DNA from: an uncultured Actinomycetes bacterium
Lineage (GTDB): Bacteria > Actinomycetota > UBA4738 > HRBIN12
NCBI GenBank assembly: GCA_963831325.1
Contig: CAWHQA010000004.1
Coordinates: 20,029 to 84,028, forward strand
DNA length: 64,000 bases
Direction of reading: 5' to 3'
Shown: positions 40,513 through 56,300 of the stretch, one piece after another
How the letters are laid out: the number at the start of each line of letters is the position of its first letter
Position numbering within the stretch: position 1 is the first letter of the stretch
Program-made: the position numbers and the translations under genes
The notes under the pieces: generated by a model
Told to the model about the DNA's origin: nothing
What the model saw: only the letters and a program-made list of their open reading frames with translations
Databases searched by the model: none

Positions 40513-41129
40513 CCGACGACGCGGCGGGCGGTCACGATGAGGCGCTCGCTGCTCGAGTACTTCGGGTTGCAGGTGGTGAGCACGAGGGTCGGGCGAGGGG
40601 TCTGCGTGAGGACCCGGCCCGAGCCTTCCGAAGGGACCACGAACACCTCGTCCACTTCGTAGCGGAACGTGCCGTACCCGGTTCGCACCGTGATCTCATC
40701 ACCGGGTGCAAGCTGTTCGAGGTCGAAGAACGGCGCCTGGTACGTGGTTCGGTGACCGGCGATCCCCACCCTGCCCTTGTCGTCCCAAGGGTCGGCGGTG
40801 TCGGGGTAGTGGCCCGGGCCATCCTTCAGATCCTCGTAGCTCGTGCCCTGCACCACCATGAAGTTCAGGTCGATCGCCGCGATCTCGAGCTGCGCGTAGG
40901 CGTCACCGAGCGGTACCCGGTCGGGCGCCGTCGATGGGTCGGCCGGCTCCTCGACCTCGCGCTGGAACTCCGTCCGCAAGCGATCCTGAGCCTGGGCGGT
41001 GTGCAGTCCCGTGCCCCAGAGCGACCAACCGACATAGCCGGCGAACCCGGCGGCAGCCATCAGGCACGCCATGCCGAACCAGTGCACGATCGTGCGCCAT
41101 CCACCGCGTTCTTGTCGCTCTGCCGTCAT
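40509..41129 (-). CDS. Class E sortase
   Basis: N-terminal TM, GPGHYP, AGHRTTY, LVLTTCNP....ERLIV. Confidence 0.93.
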   Translation of the reverse strand: MTAERQERGGWRTIVHWFGMACLMAAAGFAGYVGWSLWGTGLHTAQAQDRLRTEFQREVEEPADPSTAPDRVPLGDAYAQLEIAAIDLNFMVVQGTSYEDLKDGPGHYPDTADPWDDKGRVGIAGHRTTYQAPFFDLEQLAPGDEITVRTGYGTFRYEVDEVFVVPSEGSGRVLTQTPRPTLVLTTCNPKYSSSERLIVTARRVVG

Positions 41130-41187
41130 GACCCAACCGTACCGTCACGCCCGGCCTGCGTCGCCCATGCCACCTACACTTGCCTGC

Positions 41188-43522
<2,335 letters not shown>

Positions 43523-43523
43523 G

Positions 43524-45003
43524 TCACCTCGAGAGCCGATCGAGCACGTTGCGCGTGACCCGCTCGACGATCGGATCGCCGCCCACGAGCCCGCAGGTCC
43601 AGTCGGTGACGCCGGCGTTGAAGACGGTGCCGCCGCCGTCGGCTTCGTGAACACGCCGATGCACGGCATGGTTGTTCGTCACCCGGTGTACCTGGTCGCG
43701 CCAGCCCGGCGCCGAACACGGCCATCGCGGTGTTCTCGAGCTCGCCCGGCTCGTGCGCGTACCGGCTCGGCTGCTCGTCCTGCGACCACAGCCGCGCCGG
43801 GGCGGTGGCCAGGATCTCGAGCCCGTCGGGCGCGCCGTCGGCTCCGGTCGGGACGGGCAGGCCGTCGGGACCGGTCGTGAGCTCGCACGCCGTCGACCTC
43901 GTAGGCCGACGATCGCGTCGGCGCGGCCGAGCTCGTCGCCGTAGCGCAGATCGGTGCCCTCGAACGCCCAGTGCTCGGGCCGCCACACCGTGTAGGCGCC
44001 GCGACCCGCGGGGCACGCCGAGGCCGTAGCGCGAGTAGCCGCCGCGGGTGAACGTGAGGCCGATCGTGCGCGTCTCCGGCCACGCGATGCGCCGGTCGCT
44101 CCACGCGCCGGTGAGGAGGCGCTCGTCGGGGGTGCCGACGACCGGGTCCTCGTCGGCCCGGTACTTGAAGCAGGTCATCGCGCGATGCGTCGTCGTCGAA
44201 CCGCACCTGCCAGAAGCACGTGTTCCCGCTGAGGATCGCCGCGTTGCCGCCGGCGTCGGTGAACGCGTCGAGCGCGTCGCGCATGCCCCACGACCAGTAC
44301 TCGTCGTGGCCGACCGAGAGGTAGCAGCCGGTGGCCGTCGAGCACCTCGGGATGCTGCTCGAGGTCCTCGGAGGTCGCGACATCGACCTCGTAGCCGCTC
44401 GACTCGGCCCAGCGGACGAAGTCGCGCTCCCACGTGGCCCAGCCCGAGCCCCCGCTCCACACGGACAGCCCCAGCGGTTCCGCCCACTCGAAGTACCAGA
44501 GCGCCTCTCGGTCGGGCTCGGGCTGCATCTTCCGGCGCATCGGCTCGCGGCTTGTCGAGGAAGCCGCGCGCCAGCGGGCGCTCGAACGAGACCCTGGTGC
44601 CGCCGGTGTAGAGGCTCGGTCCGCCCCAGTCGTTGTAGGCGTTCCACGTGGTGGTGGAGAGCACAAGGATCATCGGCGCTCGAGGAGCGTCCTGCGCAGG
44701 TCGCACGACCAGGAAGGCGTCGGCCCGCTCCTCGCCGGCCGTGAGCGTTACGGAGTAGTAGCCGCTCCGCCAGCCGTTGCCGACCGGGATCTCGAGCGCC
44801 GCGGGCCAGCCGCACCCGCTGGCCGAAGCATCGTCGGGGATCGGGTGGGCTTCGGCTCGCTGGTCGTTCGCGCGCCACACGACCTCGCGTTCGGCACCCT
44901 CCCGTGCGACTCGAACGTCGAACGCATCAGCGTCCGTCGAGACATGCAGAGGGAGTGACTGCCCGGGGATCGCCGATCGCGGGAAGCAGTACGCCTCGAG
45001 CAC
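43524..45003 (-). CDS. N,N-dimethylformamidase beta-subunit family protein (several frameshifts)
   Basis: WRSGYY, TTWNAYNDWGG, SFERP, SVGHDEYWS, SGNTCFWQVR, VFNAG.TDW across frames. Confidence 0.8.
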
Positions 45004-45009
45004 GCCCGA

Positions 45010-45637: not shown

Positions 45638-46262
45638 CTAGCCGCCCTCCACGACATGAGTGACCGGTTGGCGCAGCACCGTCTTCATCTTCTCGGGCGC
45701 CACGCGCTTCGGATCCGACAGGTAGATCTCGTGGAAGGACTCGGTGGCGACGAGGTCGTGCTCGGGCAGGAAGTCGTGGTGCAGCCGCGCCATAGTGGGG
45801 ATCGCGTCCTCCTCGCGGCCGACGTGCATGATCTGGACGGACGTCCCCTCGTCGAACCGATCGAGCCTCAGGGTGTTCGGCGGTTCCCCGAGCCGTTCCG
45901 ACGCGGCGGTCCTCCCCCGGTCGAACAGCTCCTCATCGATCCAGTCGGCCATGACGATCATCTGCCGCCACATCCACTTCGCCCGGTCTCCCGAGATGAA
46001 GTCCTTCATGTCGTCGGCCCACCACAGGACCTCCAGCGGCGGTTCAGCGTAGCTCCCGCCCATCCGTTCGCGGGCGATCGGCTTGATCGGAGCGATCAGG
46101 GATAACAGCCAACGCGTGCCCAGGCGGAACACCTCGGGTGGAATGGTCCCCCGCCCCCTTCGATCATCACGAACTGCATCTCGGGCACGTGCACAAGGAC
46201 GAACCTGTCGGCCGGCGGTAGTAGAGCTCCTTCAGCCGCTGCAGCTCGTCGCTCGTGCTCAT
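45638..46262 (-). CDS. GyrI-like small-molecule-binding domain protein (homopolymer frameshifts near 5' end)
   Basis: RBS GGGAG + MSTSDE..KELY.PP, VP.MQFVMIEG.G, PPLE.LWW, WRQMI, QIMHVG, HEIYLSDP...PEKMKTVLRQP. Confidence 0.85.
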
Positions 46263-46355
46263 GGCGCTCTCCCTCGGCGCCGAGGATACCCAATGACGCG
46301 CCAGAGCTGGACGCCCCTGCAGAGCCACCGAATGCGCTGATCGGTACGGACTACC

Positions 46356-47704
46356 TCAGCTCACCCACCCGATACAGGCGCCACGGTCCGGTACCCCTTT
46401 CAGCTCGTGTTCCCCGGCGTCTTCGAAGATGAGGCCGCTCCCCGCAACCAGATCCTTGACCGTCTGGGAAACGAGCACCTGCGAGGGACCGGCGAGGGCG
46501 CCCACGCGGGCGCCGATCACCACGCCGAGGCCAGCCACGTCATCGCCCTCGATCGCGACCTCGCCTGTGTGCAATCCCGCCCGTATCTCGATCCCGAGGG
46601 GACCGACCGCCGCGGCGACCGCCGTCGCGCAGCGCACCCCGCGTGCCGGCCCGTCGAACGTCGCGAGGAACCCATCGCCCATCGTCTTGATCTCTCGTCC
46701 GCGGTACCGGGCGATCTGCGAGCGCACGATCTGATCATGACGAGCACGCACATCGCGCCAGCCGGCATCACCGAGCGCGGCCGCCTGCACGGTGGAGTCG
46801 ACCACGTCCGTGAACAGCACCGTCGCGAGGACGCGATCGAAGTCCGCCTGCTCGACGCGGAGCGACTCGACGAACGCCGCTATGTGGGGGACGAGATCGT
46901 CGAGCGGGTACAAGTGGTCGTCTCCTGGGAGTTCGACGATGCGCGCGCCGGGTGTGTGCTCCGCGGTGTACCGCCCCTCCTCGACCTTCGTCATGCGGTC
47001 GCCGGTCCGATGCAGGACGAGTGTCGGAGCCTGGACGGACGGGAGGATGTGGCGGACGTCGGTCTCCATCACCGCGCGATCGCGCGCGATCGCGTCTCCC
47101 GGGCTGGCGGAGAGCCGGAGCTGCCTCCCGTACTCTCGCACCGACGGTCTCGTCGTGCAGGAGCGACGGGGACAGCATCTCGACGACCTCACGGACGAAG
47201 GCGTCGGTGCCCCACGCATGCTCGACCCGTTCGAAGTACTCCTCGTACATCTCTCTGCTCCAGCGTCGCGGGGTAGTCGGGCGCCGGTGTTCCACGCACC
47301 ATCGGAGCCTGCACGATCACCCCCGACGTGCGATGCGGGTGCGTCGCGGCGAACGTGAAGCAGAGCGACGCGCCGCTCTCGATCCCGAACAGGAACGCAC
47401 GCTCCGACGACGCTGCGTCCATCACGGCGCGGATGTCGTCCATCTGCGCTTCGATCGTGGCTGCTTCGCCGGTCCACGAACGGTCCGACGTGCCGCTGCC
47501 ACGCCGATCGAAGACCAACACTCGGCCGATCGAGGCCAAGCCCCGAACGAACGAGACGAACGGGGGGAAGTCCCAGGCGGCTTCGATGTTGGAGTAGTCG
47601 TACGGGACGAACACGATGTCCACAGGACCGGAACCCACCACCTGGTAGCCCACGTGGATCCCGTCCGCCGCGCGCGCGTACCGTGTCTCGGGCGCTTGGG
47701 TCAT
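46356..47704 (-). CDS. Alpha/beta hydrolase + class III nucleotidyl cyclase, LipJ-like paralog 4 (frameshifts ~47270, ~47145, ~46380)
   Basis: [43 protein letters not shown]...IGARV, HELKGVP. Confidence 0.85.
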
Positions 47705-49033
47705 GACGTCACCCGGAAGAGGCGCCAGCGGTCGGGCACGCCCTTCAGCTCGTGCTCGCCTGCGTCCTCGAACGTGAGGCCCGAGCCGGCCACGAGATCC
47801 TTCACGGTCTGTGAGACGAGGACCTCCGAAGGTCGCGGCCAGCGCGCCCACCCGCGCACCGATCGCCGCAGTCGGTCCGCCGAGATGGCCGTCGATCACC
47901 TCACATTCGCCGACGTGCACGCCTGCGCGGATCTCGAGGTCGAGGTCCCGCACGTTCCTCGTGACCGCGTCGGCACACCTGACAGCCGCGGCTGGTCCCT
48001 CGAACGTGGCGTAGAAGCCGTCGCCCGCGGTGTCGACCTCGGCGCCGTCGAACGAGGCGAGCTCCGCTCGCACGAGCGCGTGATGCCGTTCGATGACCGC
48101 CTTCCACGCATCCACGCCGAGGCGGAAGGCGGTCTCCGTGGATCCCACGATATCGGTGAACAACACGGCCCTCAACGCACCACCCGCCGTTGCCGCTAGG
48201 GGAGTGACTCCGATGAAGTCCCTGATCGCAGTGACGAGGGGAGCCTGGTCCCCGGCGGCCGAGTAGCGCTCCGTGCCCGGCAAGGAGACGAGCCTCGCTC
48301 CCGGGATGGCCCGTGTCACATACTCGGCCTCCTCGATCCCCTCCTCGAACGCTCGGACGAGGCAGAGCGTCGGCACCGAGATCGAGGGAAGAACTTCACG
48401 GATGTCGGTCTCGTAGTAGCGACGAAGCAGCTCGACCGCGTCGCCCGGTGCTGCCCAGTGGCGCTGGAGGCGGGCGTACCATCGGATCAGGCTTCGGTCA
48501 CCGGCGAGCGACGGCGCAACCGCTTCCATGAACTCGGCCGCATTTGCGTCGGTTCCCCAACCTCGACGAACGGCCTCGATGTCGGCGTTCGCCTCTTCCT
48601 CGGTCGCCCCCCATGGATAGCCGTCGACCTTCGTCCCGCGAGCTACTGGATCGAAGAGGCACAAGGCCCGGACGCGACGTGGATGGGTCGCGGCGAACAA
48701 GGGGGCGACCACGTTCCCCGCACTGACGATGACCGTCGAGCGAGAGCCCGCCGCATCGAGCACCGCGACGATGTCCCGTGCCTCGGTCTCGAGATCGGGA
48801 AGGCCGGCGTATCGATCCGAGAGCCCGGTGCCGCGCATGTCGTGACGGATCACGCGCGAGAAGGTGTTCAGCTTCGTGGTCAACGCCGGGATCAGGGGAT
48901 GCTCCCACTGCAGCTCGAGCCCGCCGTTGAAGCTGTGGATCCACAGGATGTCGACGGGGCCATCACCCACGACGTGATACGCGATGTGCACCCCGTCCTC
49001 GGTGAGCGCGTAACGGGTCTCCGGGGCGTCCAC
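47701..49033 (-). CDS. Alpha/beta hydrolase + class III cyclase, paralog 3 (frameshift ~47833)
   Basis: [29 protein letters not shown]; corrected end ...[14 protein letters not shown], stop overlapping next ATG. Confidence 0.87.
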
Positions 49034-49034
49034 C

Positions 49035-50381
49035 TCAGCTAACCACCCGGTACAGGCGCCACGTGTCCGGCACGCCCTTCAGCTCGTGCTCGCCAGCCTC
49101 ATCGAACACGAGCCCCGACCCGGCCGTGAGGTCCTTCACGGTCGATGACACGAGCACTTCTGATGGACCCGCGAGCGCGCCGATCCGCGCGCCGATGGCG
49201 ACCCCGATGCCGCCGATCTTCCCGTCGATCAGGTCGCATTCCCCCGTGTGGACCCCGGCCCGGATCTCGAGGTCGAGCCGGTTGCTGGACGACGCGATGG
49301 TCAGCGCGCAGCGCACGGCGCGAGCCGGGCCGTCGAAGGTCGCCAGGAAGCCGTCTCCGGCGGTGTCGATCTCCACGCCGCGGTGTCGAGCGAGCTCCGT
49401 TCTCACGAGCGCGTAGTGATCCTCGAGGACGTTCCGCCATCGTGCGTCGCCGAGCTCTGCCGCGCGCGCGGTCGAACCGACGATGTCGGTGAAGAGCACC
49501 GTCGCCAGCGCTCGATCGGGATCGGGTCCTCGTCGGGTTCCCGTCAGGAACTCCTCGACCTCGTCGAGCAGGGCATCCTGATCACCCGCCCACGGAAGGT
49601 GGTCATCGCCGCTGAGCTCCACGAAGCGCGCACCGGGGATCCGCGAGCTCAGACTTCGTCCGGCATCGACCGATTCGATCGCGTCGCCCGTGCGGTGCAG
49701 CACCAGGGTGGGGACGGCGATGGAGGGCAGCACCGCGCGCATGTCGATGTCACGCCAGATCGACTCGATCGCCACGACCGCGGAAGGGCTCGCGGCGAGC
49801 CGTTGGTAGGTCACGAACCATTCCCGGACATGCGGGTCGTCGTACGCGCTCGGGGCGGCCCATCGCAGGATCGATTCGATGTAGTCCCGGTGCCCCCAGC
49901 CCTCGCCCAGCTCCTGAAGGTATCGCTGCCACTCGTCCGAGCTCCATGCCCACGGTTCATCGGGGGTGCGGGTGCCCACAGCCGAGGCTCCGTAGAGGAT
50001 CAGCGCCGACGCTCGATCGGGATGCGACGCGGCGAACAAGGCGCAGAGGTCGGCGCCGTCGGCGAAGCCGAAGAGCGCCGCTCGCTCGATGCCCGCGTCG
50101 TCGAGGACCGCGCGGAGGTCGGCGACGAGCACCTCGATCGGGGGCAGGTCGCTCGCGGAGAGGCGATCCGAGAGCCCCGTTCCGCGCCGGTCGACGACGA
50201 CGAGTCGCGAGAACGAGGCGAGCCGGCTCAGGAACCGTGCGTACCGAGGGTTCCCCCAGTTCAGCTCCAGGTTCGAGGCGAAGCCGGGAACGTAGACGAG
50301 CGCCGACTCGCTCTGCCCGATGAGCTGATACGCAAGCGCGATCCCGTCGTTCTTCGCGTAACGCGTCTCTGGGACGTCCAC
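49035..50381 (-). CDS. Alpha/beta hydrolase + class III cyclase, paralog 2 (intact, 448 aa)
   Basis: [50 protein letters not shown]. Confidence 0.93.
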   Translation of the reverse strand: MDVPETRYAKNDGIALAYQLIGQSESALVYVPGFASNLELNWGNPRYARFLSRLASFSRLVVVDRRGTGLSDRLSASDLPPIEVLVADLRAVLDDAGIERAALFGFADGADLCALFAASHPDRASALILYGASAVGTRTPDEPWAWSSDEWQRYLQELGEGWGHRDYIESILRWAAPSAYDDPHVREWFVTYQRLAASPSAVVAIESIWRDIDMRAVLPSIAVPTLVLHRTGDAIESVDAGRSLSSRIPGARFVELSGDDHLPWAGDQDALLDEVEEFLTGTRRGPDPDRALATVLFTDIVGSTARAAELGDARWRNVLEDHYALVRTELARHRGVEIDTAGDGFLATFDGPARAVRCALTIASSSNRLDLEIRAGVHTGECDLIDGKIGGIGVAIGARIGALAGPSEVLVSSTVKDLTAGSGLVFDEAGEHELKGVPDTWRLYRVVS

Positions 50382-50382
50382 G

Positions 50383-51727
50383 TCAGCCCGCCACCCGGTA
50401 CAAGCGCCAGCGGTCGGGGACGCCTTTCAGTTCGTGCTCGCCGGCCTCCTCGAACGTCAAGTCCGGATCCCGCCACGAGGTCCCTGACGGTCTGTGAGAC
50501 GACCACCTCCGAGGCGCCGGCCATCGCTCCGACGCGCGCTCCGATCACGACGGCCATGCCGCCGACCTTGCCGTCGATCGTCTCCACCTCGCCCGTGTGC
50601 ACGCCTGCCCGTACCTCGATGCCGAGGGGGGCGATGGCGGCGGCGATCGCGCCCGCACAGCGCACGGCCCGAGCAGGCCCGTCGAAGGTCGCGAAGAATC
50701 CGTCGCCCGCTGTGTCGACCTCGATGCCGCGGAAGCGGGCGAGCTGCCCGCGCACGCGACGATGGTGCGTCTCGAGCAGCTCCTTCCAGGCTCGATCCCC
50801 GAGCTCGGCGGCCTTCTCGGTGGAGCCCACTACGTCGGTGAAGAGCACGGTGGCGAGCGCGCGGTCGAGTCCGGCTTCCAGGTCGCCGAGGTCCACGACG
50901 AACCGTTCGACCTCGTCGAGGATGTCGTCCTGCGGGCCTACCCAGGGGAAGTGCACGCTGCCCGGCAGCTCGACGAACGTGGCGCCGACGATGAGCTCGG
51001 CGGTGCGCCGGCTCTCCTCGATCGGGAAGTCGAGATCGCCGGTCCTCGCGATCACGAGCGTCGGCACGTGGATCGATGCGAGCGCGTGTGTAGCGTTGAT
51101 CTCACGGTTCATGCGTTCGAGCGCGATCGCGGCGGAAGGGCTCGCAGATCGGCGCATGTAGGAGGCGAGCCACGTGATCAGTCGCTCGTCGCGCTCGAAG
51201 CCCGGCGCACCCCATGCCCCGATCTCGTGGCGGGCGAACTCTTCCGTTCCCCATGCCCCCTCCATGCGCTCGAGGTAGGCCGCGCCATCGTCCTTGTAGG
51301 CCGGCGACCTGATCGTGAAGTCGGCTGCGGTGCCGTAGAGCGCGAGGGCCACCGTTCGCTCCGGGTAGGTCGCGGCGAAGAGCATCGACATCGGACCGCC
51401 TTCGGACACCCCGAACACCACCGCCCTATCCGACCCTACGGCGTCCATCACGGCTCGCACGTCGTCCATACGCGTCTCGAGGTTCGGCAGGCGATCGTCG
51501 GGCACGCGGTCGGACAGGCCGACACCGCGCTTGTCGAACAGGATCAACCGCGAGAACGTGCTGAGGTTATCGAGGAACCTCGCGAAGTCCGGTTCCTCCC
51601 ACATCGCCTCGACGTTCGAGAGCCAGCCCATCACGAACACCATGTCGACGGGCCCGTCGCCGACGACCTGGTATGCGATGTGCACGCCGTCGGCGGCCTT
51701 CGCGTACCGGGTCTCTGGGATGCGCAT
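50383..51727 (-). CDS. Alpha/beta hydrolase + class III cyclase, paralog 1 (frameshift ~50460)
   Basis: [40 protein letters not shown]; corrected end ...WRLYRVAG*. Confidence 0.9.
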
Positions 51728-51747
51728 GCGTGGATACTCCGCCCGCG

Positions 51748-51796
51748 GCGCCCTGCGCCGCAAGCCGAGCAGTGGCACCCTGCGCCGCAAGCCGAG
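51748..51796. repeat. 22-bp direct repeat x2 (27-bp period) in divergent promoter region
   Basis: GCGCCCTGCGCCGCAAGCCGAG (51748) and GCACCCTGCGCCGCAAGCCGAG (51775), 1 mismatch. Confidence 0.8.
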
Positions 51797-51825
51797 ACCG
51801 TGCGCCATCGCTAGACTCAGCCGCG

Positions 51826-52237
51826 ATGGCGGCGACCTATCGCATCGTGGTGGCGAAACCGGGGCTGGATGGCCACGACCGGGGGGCCAAGGTGGTCGCA
51901 CGGGCGCTCCGCGACGCGGGGTTCGAGGTGATCTACACGGGCATTCATCAGACGGCCGAGCAGATCGCTGAGACCGCGATCCAGGAAGACGCCGACGCCG
52001 TTGGTCTGTCGAGCCACTCGGGCGCGCACATGACGCTGTTCCCGAAGGTGGTGACGCAGCTCCGCGAGCGTGGCGCCGGCGACATCCTGGTGTTCGGGGG
52101 CGGCGTGATCCCGGTCGACGACATCCCAACGCTGAAGGAAGCCGGCATCGCCGAGATCTTCACGCCTGGGGCGAACACGGGCGACATCGCCACGTGGCTC
52201 CGCGAGCACCTCGAGGACCCGTCCCGCTGCGAACTAG
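51826..52237 (+). CDS. Cobalamin-binding small subunit of an acyl-CoA mutase (IcmB/methylmalonyl-CoA mutase C-terminal domain)
   Basis: [13 protein letters not shown] (DxHxxG), QEDAD.VGLS..SGAH, GGG.IP, FTPG; likely true stop TAG 52235-52237 after a 1-nt indel (called frame runs to 52323). Confidence 0.92.
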
Positions 52238-52268: not shown

Positions 52269-53414
52269 ATGGACCTGTACGAGCACCAAGGCAAGGAGCT
52301 CTTCCGTGCTCACGGCATCGTGACGCCGCGCGGCATCGTCGTCGAGACGGCCGAGCACGCCGCCGACGCCACGCGCGAGCTCGGCGGGCGCAGCGTGGTC
52401 AAGGTGCAGGTGCAGATCGGCGGAAGGGGCAAGGGCGGAGGCGTGGTGCTCGTCGACTCGCCCGAGCATGCAGCCGAGGAAGCCGCCCGCATGCTCGGCT
52501 CGGACTTCAAGGGCCATGCGGTCACGCAAGTGCTCGTCGAGGAGCTGTTGCCGATCGCCGGCGAGTTCTACACGTCGATGCTGCTCGACCGTTCCACCGG
52601 CGACTACCTCGCGATGATGACCGCCGAGGGCGGGATGGACATCGAGGAGCTCGCGAGAACGCGCCCCGAGGCGCTCCGCCGAGTGCACATCGACCCCATG
52701 CTGGGCATGAGGGCGTTCCACGTGAGGGAGCTGGTCGGCACGCTGCCGATCGGCGCACGTGAAGGCGCGGCCGACGTGCTCCGCCGCATGTACGAGCTGC
52801 TGGCGGAGCGCGACGCCACCCTCGTGGAAGTGAATCCGCTCGTGCAGCTCGACGACGGCTCGGTGGTCGCGCTCGATGCCAAGGTGACGATCGACGACAA
52901 CGCGCTGTTCCGTCACCCGGAGGTCGAGGCGTACGAGGACGCGTTCCCCATCGACCCGGTGCAAGCGCGGGCGAACGAGAAGGGCCTGCAGTACGTGAAG
53001 CTCGAGGGCAGCGTCGGCATCATCGGCAACGGCGCCGGCCTCGTCATGTCGACGCTCGATCTGGTCGCACAGGCGGGGACCAGGGCGGCGAACTTCCTCG
53101 ACGTCGGCGGCGGGGCGAGCGCCGACCAGATGGCGACCTCCCTCGAGGTGGTGCTGAGCGACCCTGCCGTGAAGGCGGTGCTCGTCAACATCTTCGGCGG
53201 CATCACCCGCTGCGACCTCGTCGCCCAAGGGGTGCTCGGCGCGCTCGAGCGGGTCGAGGTCACGGTGCCGCTCGTCGTGCGGCTCGACGGCACGAACGCC
53301 GAACAGGGGCGAGCGATCCTCGAGGAGGCCGCGCACCCGCAGATCGTTGTTGCGGTGACGATGCAGGAGGCGGCCGAGCGCGCTGCAGCCCTCGCGAGCG
53401 GACGCGCGGCATGA
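52269..53414 (+). CDS. sucC: Succinyl-CoA synthetase beta subunit
   Basis: [50 protein letters not shown]. Confidence 0.97.
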
Positions 53415-54281
53415 GCATCCTGGTCGGCGCCGACACGACACTGGTAGTCCAGGGGCTCACGGGCAAGGAAGGCACGTTCCACACGCTCCGCAACCGCGCC
53501 TACGGCACGAACGTCGCCGCGGGCGTGACGCCCGGCAAGGGTGGACAGCAGGTCGAGGGCATCCCTGTGTTCGACACGGTGGCCGACGCCGTGCGCGAGA
53601 TCGGGGTCAATACGAGCATGATCTTCGTGCCGCCACGATTCGCGGCCGAGGCGATCCTCGAAGCCGCCGACGCCGGTGTCGGCCTGGTCGTGTGCATCAC
53701 CGAGGGCATCCCGGTCAAGGACATGGCGCACGTGCGGAGCTATCTGCACGGCCGCGAGACCACGCTGGTCGGGCCGAACTGTCCGGGGGTGATCTCGCCC
53801 GGCGTGGCGAACGTCGGCATCATCCCGCCACAGGTGTGCATGCCCGGCAGGGTCGGGTTCGTGAGTCGATCGGGCACGCTCGTCTACCAGATCGTGCACG
53901 AGCTCACGCAACGCGGTATCGGCCAGTCGACGTGCGTCGGCATGGGCGGTGACCCGGTGCACGGCATCGGGTTCATCGAGGCGCTCACGGCGTTCGAGGC
54001 CGACCCCGAGACCGACCTGATGATCATGACCGGGGAGATCGGTGGTGACGACGAGGAGCGGGCGGCAGCCTACATCGCCGAGCACGTGAACAAGCCCGTG
54101 GTGGCCTACATCGCCGGGTTCGAGGCACCGCCGGGCAAGCGCATGGGCCATGCGGGCGCGATCGTGACCGGTTCCAAAGGTACGGCATCCGCCAAAGCCG
54201 AGGCGCTCGAGGCCGGCGGCGTGCCGGGTGGCTCGCACGCCGAGCCAGGTCGCCGAACTCGCACAGGCGGCGCTCGCATGA
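53411..54281 (+). CDS. sucD: Succinyl-CoA synthetase alpha subunit (frameshift ~54224)
   Basis: [40 protein letters not shown]; corrected end [19 protein letters not shown]. Confidence 0.96.
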
Positions 54282-55556
54282 CCCTCACCGAGGTCGTGCA
54301 CGTGCCGCCGACCTCGCTCACCCGCGACCTCATCGCGCTCGACACCTGTCGCGGTGCTCCGCGCGACGGCAGCTGCGCTCGCCGTCGCCGCGCTCGGCCA
54401 GGTGCCACCTTCGCTGTTCAACGTCGCCGGAGGGGGGCTGGCCGTCGAGACACAGCTTCGTGCGGGCTGGCTCTACACCATGGCCGGTCACGCGGTATCG
54501 ATCAGGGCGATCGGTTCGGGAGGCTCGGTCGACGGGGTGGGAACGGGTGTGGTCAGCCTGCGACTGGGCATGCTCACGATCGCGGCGGTCGCGATCGTCA
54601 TGCTCGTGACGGGTGCACGGGCGACGGCACGCAGGGTCGAAGACGCCGGCGCCAGACGCATCGTCGCCGGGGCGCTCCTCGCCGTGCCGTACGCGGTCTT
54701 GATCGGCGGTGTCAACGCCGGCGTCGGACTGCGCCTGGACACAGGCGGCGGTTTCCTGCCGAGCGCGACCACGTTCGCCGCCCCTGTATGGGAAGGGTTC
54801 GTGCTCCCGGGAGCCCTCGCTCTGGTCGCAGGCGCGCTCGGGGGATGGTCGGTCTCTCAGAGCTGGCATCGGCCCGCGGGCCGGGTCGCCCGCGCAGGGG
54901 TGTGGGGGTTCGGCTGGGCGATCGCGCTCAGCTTCGTCGGTGTGCTGGTCTTCGCGACCGTGCGGCCGGAGGGCCTCGAGCGCTACTCGGTCGAGATGTG
55001 GTCGGCCGGACCGCAGCGAGCGGCGCTCTACATCGGCCATCAGGCGCTGCTATTGCCCGATCAAGCGATGTGGGTGGTGGCGCCATCGATGGGAGCATGC
55101 GTGTCCCTGCGCGTCGACGAGGGCGCGCACGACGTGCTCTGTCTCGACCGCATCCCGCGCGCCCCCGACCCGGCGATCTGGCTGCTCTCCGAGCTCGGAC
55201 GGGTCGACGGATCGCCGCCGGTCGCGCCGATGCCGTGGCAGGCCTGGCTCTTCGTCGCCGTGCCCACGGCGGCGATCCTGCTCGGCTTCCGTCGACTGGG
55301 CCGTTCGGCACCGTCGTTCGTGCGGGCGGTGGCTCGAGGGCTCTTCGCCGGCGCGGTGTTCGCAGTGCTCGTGACTGCGACCTCGCTCGCCGGATCGCTC
55401 TGGCTCGCCGTGCAGGACGGCGACGCGACTCGCTCCGTCGCGCTCGGCCCCGACCCACTGATGACGGCGGCGGTCGCGCTGGCCTGGGGTCTAGGGGGTG
55501 GCGCCGTCGTCAGCGCTGCGAGCCACGCGTCGCGGCGGCTCAGCCGCCGAGGCTGA
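54278..55556 (+). CDS. Polytopic membrane protein, PerM/DUF6350-like (frameshift ~54344)
   Basis: About 9 hydrophobic segments; occupies the conserved actinobacterial sucD-X-purN position; ATGA overlap with sucD. Confidence 0.7.
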
Positions 55557-56300
55557 CCTCGGTGAAGTTCGTCTCGATCTGGGTGAACCTTCCCCATGCG
55601 GCTGCCCACCCGGCGTCGTCGCGCGGGTACCTCTCCACCGGCGTCGCCGGCGCCTGGCGATCCCAGATGCCGAAGAACGTGCGCCCGTAGCCGAGCAGAT
55701 ACCGCGAGCCCGAGTGGGTGTACTGCACGGCCGCCACGTCGTCGGGATCCATGACGATCGTCTCGGTGGGCGTCGCCGGGCCCGGTGATGGCGTGCTGCC
55801 GCCAGCTTGGTCGACGCCGGTGTTGTTCGGCTCGAGGGCGACGAATCGCAGCCACGCCTGACGCCATCCGTCGTCGGTTCGTGGGAATCGTTCCGAGGGC
55901 TGCGCCGGCGCCTGACGGTCCCAGATGCCGAAGACGTCAGCGGTGTAGCCGAGCACATACCGGTACCCGGAATGTGTGTAGCGGACGTCGCCGGCAACGG
56001 TCGCCGACTGCGGCACAACCGGGTCGCTCACGGGCGCGGGCTGCGCGTCTGTCGGCTCGTCCGCCACCACAGGTTGCGCGACGGTCGGCTCGTCCGCGAC
56101 CACTGGTTGCGAGGGGGACGACGGCCCCACGTCCGGGGTGGGTGAGGACGCCGGTTCCGACGGAGTGGGCGAGACCGGCCCCTGCGGGTCCGAGGAACTC
56201 GATGTGCCGCCGCCGGCTGCACAGTGAGGTCGCTGTGGCAGTAGCGGCACTTGATCGCCTCGGACTGGATCATCTCCGCGCAGTAGGGACATTTCTTCAC
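55540..56300 (-). CDS. Zinc-ribbon protein with two tandem ~55-aa domains (frameshift ~56220)
   Basis: RBS GAGGGG + KKCPYCAE.I...AIKCRYC; P/S linker; YTHSG.RY.LGY....[21 protein letters not shown] twice. Confidence 0.75.

Follow-up and report, generated by a model that had tools for sequence, protein, structure and literature searches.

The window analysed here is a stretch of 64,000 nucleotides from an uncultured Actinomycetes bacterium (GCA_963831325.1, contig CAWHQA010000004.1), and positions 46356-51727 of it hold, on the minus strand, four adjoining LipJ-like paralogs, each combining an alpha/beta-hydrolase fold with a class III cyclase domain. An earlier note, made by a model from the sequence alone, had outlined this array, and its outer coordinates are exact, with the ATG of paralog 1 at 51727 and the stop codon of paralog 4 at 46356. 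In the list below and in the rest of the text, the residues at the two pocket positions, four residues before the second metal-binding Asp and eleven before the catalytic Arg, are given as a pair (such as D/K), and the Asn position is that of the transition-state Asn, four residues before the same Arg.

50383..51727, minus strand: paralog 1, D/K pair with V at the Asn position, a full S-D-H hydrolase triad and one additional base near 50461-50466
49035..50381, minus strand: paralog 2, 448 amino acids (aa), the sole intact frame, pair D339/K388 and A395, with D299, D343 and R399
47701..49033, minus strand: paralog 3, D/H pair with A at the Asn position and one additional base near 47834-47838
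46356..47704, minus strand: paralog 4, K/D pair, V at the Asn position, two extra bases and one missing base
51728..51822, no strand assigned: divergent intergenic region of 95 bases between paralog 1 and a gene with a B12-binding domain

Pfam models of the N-terminal Abhydrolase_1/Hydrolase_4 and the C-terminal Guanylate_cyc domains match all four paralogs above the cut-offs. The PF00211 scores of paralogs 1 to 4 are 29.7, 42.9, 22.5 and 37.0 bits (gathering score 21.9), the lower ones resulting from frameshifts that cut those frames into shorter pieces. The closest solved structure to paralog 2 is the cyclase domain of Rv1900c (1YBT, E 3.2e-47), followed by Ma1120 (E 2.6e-23). The NCBIfam LipJ equivalog NF058673 matches the same paralog from end to end with 411.2 bits, below its cut-off of 800, so these proteins have the LipJ architecture but are not LipJ orthologs. 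Gaps of 1 nucleotide separate paralog 1 from paralog 2 and paralog 2 from paralog 3, and the stop codon of paralog 3 overlaps the start of paralog 4 as ATGA. These junctions, already listed in the earlier note, are present, but only when the conserved C-terminal tails are read in shifted frames. From the spacing only, we infer that the four paralogs are co-transcribed as a single operon.

The catalytic residues could be read as previously proposed. FTD and GDG, with both metal-binding Asp residues, and the catalytic Arg are kept in all four paralogs, the pocket pairs are D/K, D/K, D/H and K/D, and the Asn position contains V, A, A and V, with no Asn in any copy. The canonical Lys/Asp pocket of adenylyl cyclases is found in paralog 4 only, and the guanylyl cyclase motif (Glu plus Cys, Ser, Thr or Gly) is absent from the non-canonical paralogs, which have Asp with Lys or His. 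The assumption that the pair sits at the base-contact positions was borne out, since HMMER aligns paralog 2 to Ma1120 without gaps, D339 corresponding to K101, K388 to D157, A395 to A164 and R399 to R168 (Ma1120 residue numbers from PMC4215837). In the HMMER alignment to Rv1900c, a gap of 4 residues falls exactly at the second site, but the same correspondence is obtained by counting back from the Arg; the spacing seen in the window at the second pocket position is shared by 253 of the 270 homologs described below. In ATP complexes of the class III fold, Lys and Asp are reported to contact N1 and N6 of adenine, and guanylyl cyclases to carry an acidic residue at the position of the adenylyl cyclase Lys (PMC7384201). 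The loss of the Asn, which could look like an oddity of this array, is normal in the family: among the 270 homologs, this position is occupied by His in 199 and by Asn in only 7. A His replaces it in Rv1900c as well (PMC4886424), and Ala is natural in the active Ma1120, where restoring the Asn led to lower activity (PMC4215837).

The main finding concerns the way in which the two pocket positions vary together across the family. Two samples of homologs were used, the first with the 270 best-scoring homologs of paralog 2 (120 from a word-indexed search and 150 representatives at 50% identity) and the second with 120 proteins found with the intact paralog 4 ortholog of the sister genome G018, none of them identical in sequence to a member of the first. 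In the first sample, the two metal-binding Asp residues (262/270 each) and the Arg (258/270) are conserved and the pair positions are variable, with D/K in 50 proteins, K/D in 49, D/D in 20, N/D in 19, D/A in 16, D/G in 14, D/R in 11 and many rarer states. Asp is the commonest state of the first position (134/270). The swapped pair is not a peculiarity of this operon, D/K and K/D being the two commonest states of the family among these 270 homologs. In the second sample, K/D is found in 88 proteins and D/K in 19. Where Lys occupies the first position, the second is D or E in 50 of 52 cases in the first sample and in all 89 in the second; where Lys occupies the second position, the first is D or E in 51 of 55 and in 19 of 19 cases, respectively. 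If the positions were independent, a base at both of them would be expected in 15.3 and 14.4 proteins of the two samples, and it is observed in 2 of 270 and 0 of 120.

This relation was also examined on a FastTree phylogeny of 273 rows, from which the two pocket columns were left out. A three-state label of the pair changes at least 65 times on the tree, and of six catalytic positions that were tallied, the two of the pair change most readily. From 22 phylogenetically independent contrasts, 9.9 associate a basic second residue with an acidic first one, 0.1 point in the opposite direction and 12.0 show no difference (median p 0.002). The reverse relation is weaker, with 7.8 for and 0.7 against (median p 0.03). 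The D/K covariation, which the earlier note had put forward as a check of its proposal, is therefore positive in both samples and holds under phylogenetic control. The D/K state also goes with an Ala two residues past the first position and with a His at position 323 of paralog 2. As judged from these alignments, a Lys in the pocket needs an acidic partner opposite to it, in either orientation, and an Asp can stand alone. This is the pattern expected of two side chains facing each other across the edge of a purine, and it does not indicate which purine. What goes beyond the ordinary at this locus is this coupling of base-contact residues, which is family-wide, phylogenetically robust and found in two polarities. 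In a search of the open-access literature, no paper describing this coupling or a class III cyclase of the D/K type was found.

One homolog, P0285, is a natural chimera. Over most of the protein, 40-column windows give 74-97% identity to the paralog 4 ortholog, but the last ~120 residues, with both pocket positions (D/K) among them, are similar to paralog 1. This suggests that recombination moves the whole cyclase core between paralogs.

The array itself is an ordinary expansion of a known family with fast turnover, which is much enlarged in this lineage of soil actinobacteria. More than 8000 database clusters match at E <= 1e-20 and 5664 cluster representatives (50% identity) at E <= 1e-30. 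A search of 31 related genomes at E <= 1e-60 gave matches in 26 of them, as many as 16 in a single genome, with tandem runs that comprise three to seven genes. Among 17 arrays, several of them related to one another, D/K and K/D copies recur side by side in those of other genomes (L063, L064/L065, L094 and L095). In one of these, from another metagenome-assembled genome of Actinomycetota (L063:58-10027), eight intact LipJ-like genes are found in tandem, with largely alternating pairs (D/K, K/D, D/K, K/D, G/D, G/K, K/D and D/K), the sixth gene being an ortholog of paralog 2 with 82% identity. At least 10 LipJ-like loci are found in the source genome (2.9 Mb, 76% complete), and in five of these a D/K pair is combined with V or A at the Asn position. 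The genome also has ~15 other cyclase domains, located in long open frames of up to ~1200 aa, and 13 domains binding cyclic nucleotide monophosphates (cNMP). Its cyclic-nucleotide network is very dense for its size.

The syntenic array of G018 (L094) has 87-88% nucleotide identity with the window and runs on into the B12-binding gene and sucC. In a tree of 51 copies from the genus, paralog 1 pairs with G018 gene 1, to which it is 89-93% identical, and with a G004 copy (all D/K, with V at the Asn position), paralog 3 pairs with G018 gene 2 and a G004 copy (all D/H with A), and paralog 4 pairs with G018 gene 3 and G004:C63 (all K/D with V). Paralog 2 has no partner in the G018 or G004 arrays in this tree, and no close ortholog of it was found at E <= 1e-170 among 37 genomes of the genus. 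Its close relatives, with identities of 95, 93, 84 and 82%, either stand alone in other contexts or belong to the eight-gene array of L063, and they read D/K, D/K, D/R and G/K. Whole-array synteny was not found around close paralog 2 orthologs, as L011, L012, L023 and L062 match only across paralog 2. Since paralog 2 has no counterpart in the G018 array, the window has gained one whole gene unit between paralogs 1 and 3 with respect to G018, and it is without the fourth gene of that array. We favor unit-wise unequal recombination as the probable mechanism, because highly conserved 3' ends and 5' starts flank each junction. With G004, paralog 4 shares 94% nucleotide identity with a silent-site divergence (dS) of 0.13-0.17 (L100, G004:C63), whereas paralogs 1 and 3 share 82 and 79% with dS of 0.65-0.69 (L093, G004:C37). 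The much closer relationship of paralog 4, whose G004 ortholog lies on a different contig, means that neighbors within the array differ in history.

Our best explanation, to which we give as a whole a probability of about 0.5, is a functional array with a pocket pair in two polarities, in which the D/K copies retain the synthesis of cyclic AMP (cAMP). The locus would encode four functional sensor cyclases of the LipJ family, in an array grown by unit-wise duplication and insertion, and all four would probably be active purine-nucleotide cyclases acting as dimers. The base-contact positions would form an electrostatically coupled pair that exists across the family as K/D or as D/K, next to states without Lys. 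From paralog 4 (K/D, Ma1120-like), cAMP is expected, and in the D/K paralogs the bound purine would face a mirrored pair of donor and acceptor, with a possibly larger side-activity on GTP. For the D/K copies taken separately, we see roughly even odds that the product is mainly cAMP; the sequence cannot tell cAMP, cyclic GMP (cGMP) or both. The earlier note had argued that the mirrored hydrogen bonds would fit guanine, which is possible, but a turned-over adenine, offering N6-H2 and a ring nitrogen, fits equally. Lys and Asp represent one donor and one acceptor in either order, and so the pair suits guanine and a flipped adenine alike. In a Ma1120 mutant, the purine has been observed turned over by 180 degrees (PMC7384201). 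The pair states are conserved in the orthologs of paralogs 1, 3 and 4.

It is possible, although we regard it as rather doubtful, that the D/K (and D/H) paralogs are GTP-preferring or dual-purine enzymes, paralog 4 making cAMP and paralogs 1 and 2 making cGMP. The Asp could accept from N1-H/N2-H2 of guanine as Glu does, and the Lys could donate to O6 (PMC7384201), but known guanylyl cyclases have Glu with Cys, Ser, Thr or Gly and not Asp with Lys. In Ma1120, the K101E substitution at pH 7.5 reduced the adenylyl cyclase activity by 92% and raised the guanylyl cyclase activity 3.6-fold, moving the preference toward GTP; the Ma1120 mutants are, however, at best dual-specific (PMC4215837). Production of cGMP would also suit the prevalence of Asp at the first position, the positive charge kept in the paralog 2 orthologs (K, K, R and K), the D/K and K/D copies standing side by side in the arrays named above and the 13 cNMP-binding domains of the genome. 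The 65 changes of the pair on the 273-row tree, on the other hand, fit a loose constraint better than 65 changes of messenger, and no cGMP-specific effector was identified. As for Rv1900c, a 2005 study by Sinha et al. is said to have found that its residue at the Lys position makes no contact with the substrate and is dispensable.

The non-canonical paralogs could instead be catalytically dead and regulate paralog 4 or each other through heterodimers, which we consider improbable. Class III cyclases are dimers with shared sites, the genes are translationally coupled, and paralog 3, with its odd D/H pair, is without two residues of the hydrolase triad. However, all four paralogs keep both metal-binding Asp residues and the Arg, which would be needless in a dead partner, and selection is equally strong on all of them. 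Orthologs of paralog 2, moreover, occur as solitary genes and so cannot depend on a partner in the array. The combinatorial outputs that the earlier note envisaged for heterodimers are speculative. The hydrolase triad reads S-D-H in paralog 1, A-D-H in paralog 2 (the nucleophile Ser replaced by Ala, GFADG) and E(S)-D-H in paralog 4 (GIESG), while in paralog 3 the Asp and the His are lost. Since the full triad is found in paralog 1 only among the four copies, and S-D-H in only 69 of the 270 homologs, the hydrolase domain is probably a ligand-binding or regulatory module, and this loosely supports a "sensory" role for the array.

The state of the reading frames raises a different alternative. 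Taken literally, the window sequence has one open frame in paralog 2 only and five single-base insertions or deletions (indels) across paralogs 1, 3 and 4, which the earlier note passed over without saying so when it presented four readable genes. The extra base of paralog 1 shifts its last ~28 codons, and that of paralog 3, directly after the catalytic Arg, shifts the C-terminal ~45 codons. In paralog 4, there are extra bases at about 47263-47265 and at 47142-47144, in the hydrolase domain, and a base is missing at 46383-46384, near the C-terminus. It could be supposed that these frameshifts are real and that three of the four genes are young pseudogenes, which is what the window sequence as it stands would indicate, paralogs 1 and 3 being without a read-level check. 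We consider this very unlikely. Each break amounts to one base in comparison with intact orthologs: the genes of the syntenic G018 array are intact (443-459 aa) and have the same junction types, and against them the window has one additional base at 50461, 47834, 47263 and 47144 and one fewer at 46383. The G004 loci L093 and L100 (the latter 94% identical to paralog 4) reveal the same indel sites. Contigs of the independent sequencing runs X1, X2, X3 and X5 differ from the window by the same three indels in paralog 4, the extra base being omitted at 47142/47144 in 3 of 4 runs and at 47264/47265 in 4 of 4. These contigs are short, for the most part 90-95% alike, and some derive from other paralogs or organisms; they gave no evidence on the frameshift sites of paralogs 1 and 3. 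A 268-base run contig with 1 mismatch has three indels relative to the window, one of which, at 46384, restores WRLYRV and the C-terminal frame of paralog 4. None of the 24 listed sequencing runs contained more than 0.19 of the sampled words.

Flanking genes are broken as well (41071-43522, 43495-45003 and 53411-55690: pcrA, a DMFA2-like gene and sucD). The UvrD_C domain of pcrA is split across two open reading frames (ORFs) in different frames, and in the DMFA2-like gene, comparison with G004 reveals single additional bases at 44324, 44546 and 45005-45006. For sucD, the Pfam matches end at residue 269 of an ORF of 759 aa, which has the appearance of a frame change late in the gene. Throughout the assembly, indels seem to occur about once every several hundred bases, and the genome, although in only 38 contigs, is 76% complete by marker genes. 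The ratio of replacement to silent substitution rates (dN/dS) against orthologs is 0.12-0.14 for paralog 1, 0.13-0.17 for paralog 2, 0.14-0.16 for paralog 3 and 0.06-0.14 for paralog 4, with no excess of replacement changes, showing purifying selection on all four. Considering the intact orthologs, the run contigs, the broken housekeeping neighbors, the marker completeness and the dN/dS of 0.06-0.17 over all four paralogs, the five frame breaks look like errors of assembly and not gene decay.

The production of cUMP or cCMP by the D/K paralogs in a Pycsar-like manner, the cUMP part of which the earlier note had suggested, is hardly credible, because its sole supporting point is that the swapped pair could also bond O4 and N3-H of uracil, while with the PycC model of PADLOC, paralog 2 scores 13.9 bits (E 0.0065) and paralogs 1, 3 and 4 have no match, no effector gene adjoins the array (its neighbors are a GyrI-like gene, a B12-binding mutase subunit, sucC/sucD and pcrA), and the closest relatives are purine cyclases.

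Some points weigh against the reading that we favor, that of four functional cyclases whose D/K copies retain cAMP synthesis. The effect of K101E argues that an acid at that position is unfavorable to efficient canonical ATP binding, and the literature search returned no measured activity for any cyclase of the D/K type. Both homolog samples are composed of the nearest relatives of their queries and are not random draws. The evidence on the frameshift sites of paralogs 1 and 3 is ortholog comparison only. Regarding the operon, a scan of 45900-52000 found no promoter-like (sigma-70-like) site and no terminator at its end; the lone terminator-like match (47541-47520) is inside paralog 4 and at chance level.

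Two differences from G018 are seen at the borders of the array. Downstream of paralog 4, after 223 bases, there is a gene with a GyrI-like small-molecule-binding domain (45638-46132, minus strand), where G018 has its fourth cyclase gene. In the spacer upstream of paralog 1, positions 51743-51797 contain a direct duplication of 27 bases, the two copies beginning CTCGGCTTGCGGCGCAGGG, which is present as a single copy in G018, and the comparison with L094 shows 27 additional bases at 51770-51797. Tandem Repeats Finder gave no rows for 51650-51900, the duplication having been found by eye and by the comparison with L094.

The choice between ATP and GTP in class III cyclases is still debated, and engineered swaps give mixed results. 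The LipJ-like family represents a natural experiment, with hundreds of homologs of either polarity in which the pair is coupled in evolution, both polarities often within one array, and at least one natural chimera joining a paralog 4-like body to a D/K-type core. The natural charge swap and chimeras such as P0285 are ready-made test pairs. Should cAMP be the product of the D/K type, a mirror-image form of the textbook Lys/Asp rule would be needed. We give only limited credit to the possibility that LipJ family members with Asp at the first position, D/K included, act as guanylyl cyclases or on both purines; if they did, soil Actinomycetota would run cAMP and cGMP in parallel from mixed K/D and D/K arrays. 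In case the D/K type makes cGMP, there would be a large hidden pool of bacterial guanylyl cyclases and bacterial cGMP signaling would be far commoner than believed. With respect to the earlier note as a whole, its residues and coordinates stand and its covariation check is positive, whereas its four readable frames are not those of the literal sequence and cUMP is without support.

Three groups of known systems can be compared with the array. The guanylyl cyclases Cya2, RhGC and sGC resemble the D/K copies in having an acid at the Lys position (PMC7384201). They differ from them in that the acid is Glu and not Asp, the second residue is Cys or Ser and not Lys, and there is no hydrolase-fold domain. 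In Cya2, the second pocket position is a Gly. Rv1900c/LipJ of M. tuberculosis (1YBT, 1YBU; NF058673) has the same two-domain architecture as the four paralogs, also without the Asn and with a non-canonical first pocket position. By alignment, its two pocket positions and Asn position read N/D/H and those of paralog 2 read D/K/A, and directly before its second position there are 4 additional residues, without a counterpart in 253 of the 270 family members. With Ma1120 of M. avium (4WP3, 5D15 and others), the match covers the cyclase domain only (residues 288-447 of paralog 2), and the accessible part of its description mentions no natural or engineered D/K version (PMC4215837). Ma1120 is active with K101/D157, Ala164 and Arg168 (PMC4215837), and in this it resembles paralog 4, with its K/D pair and V at the Asn position.

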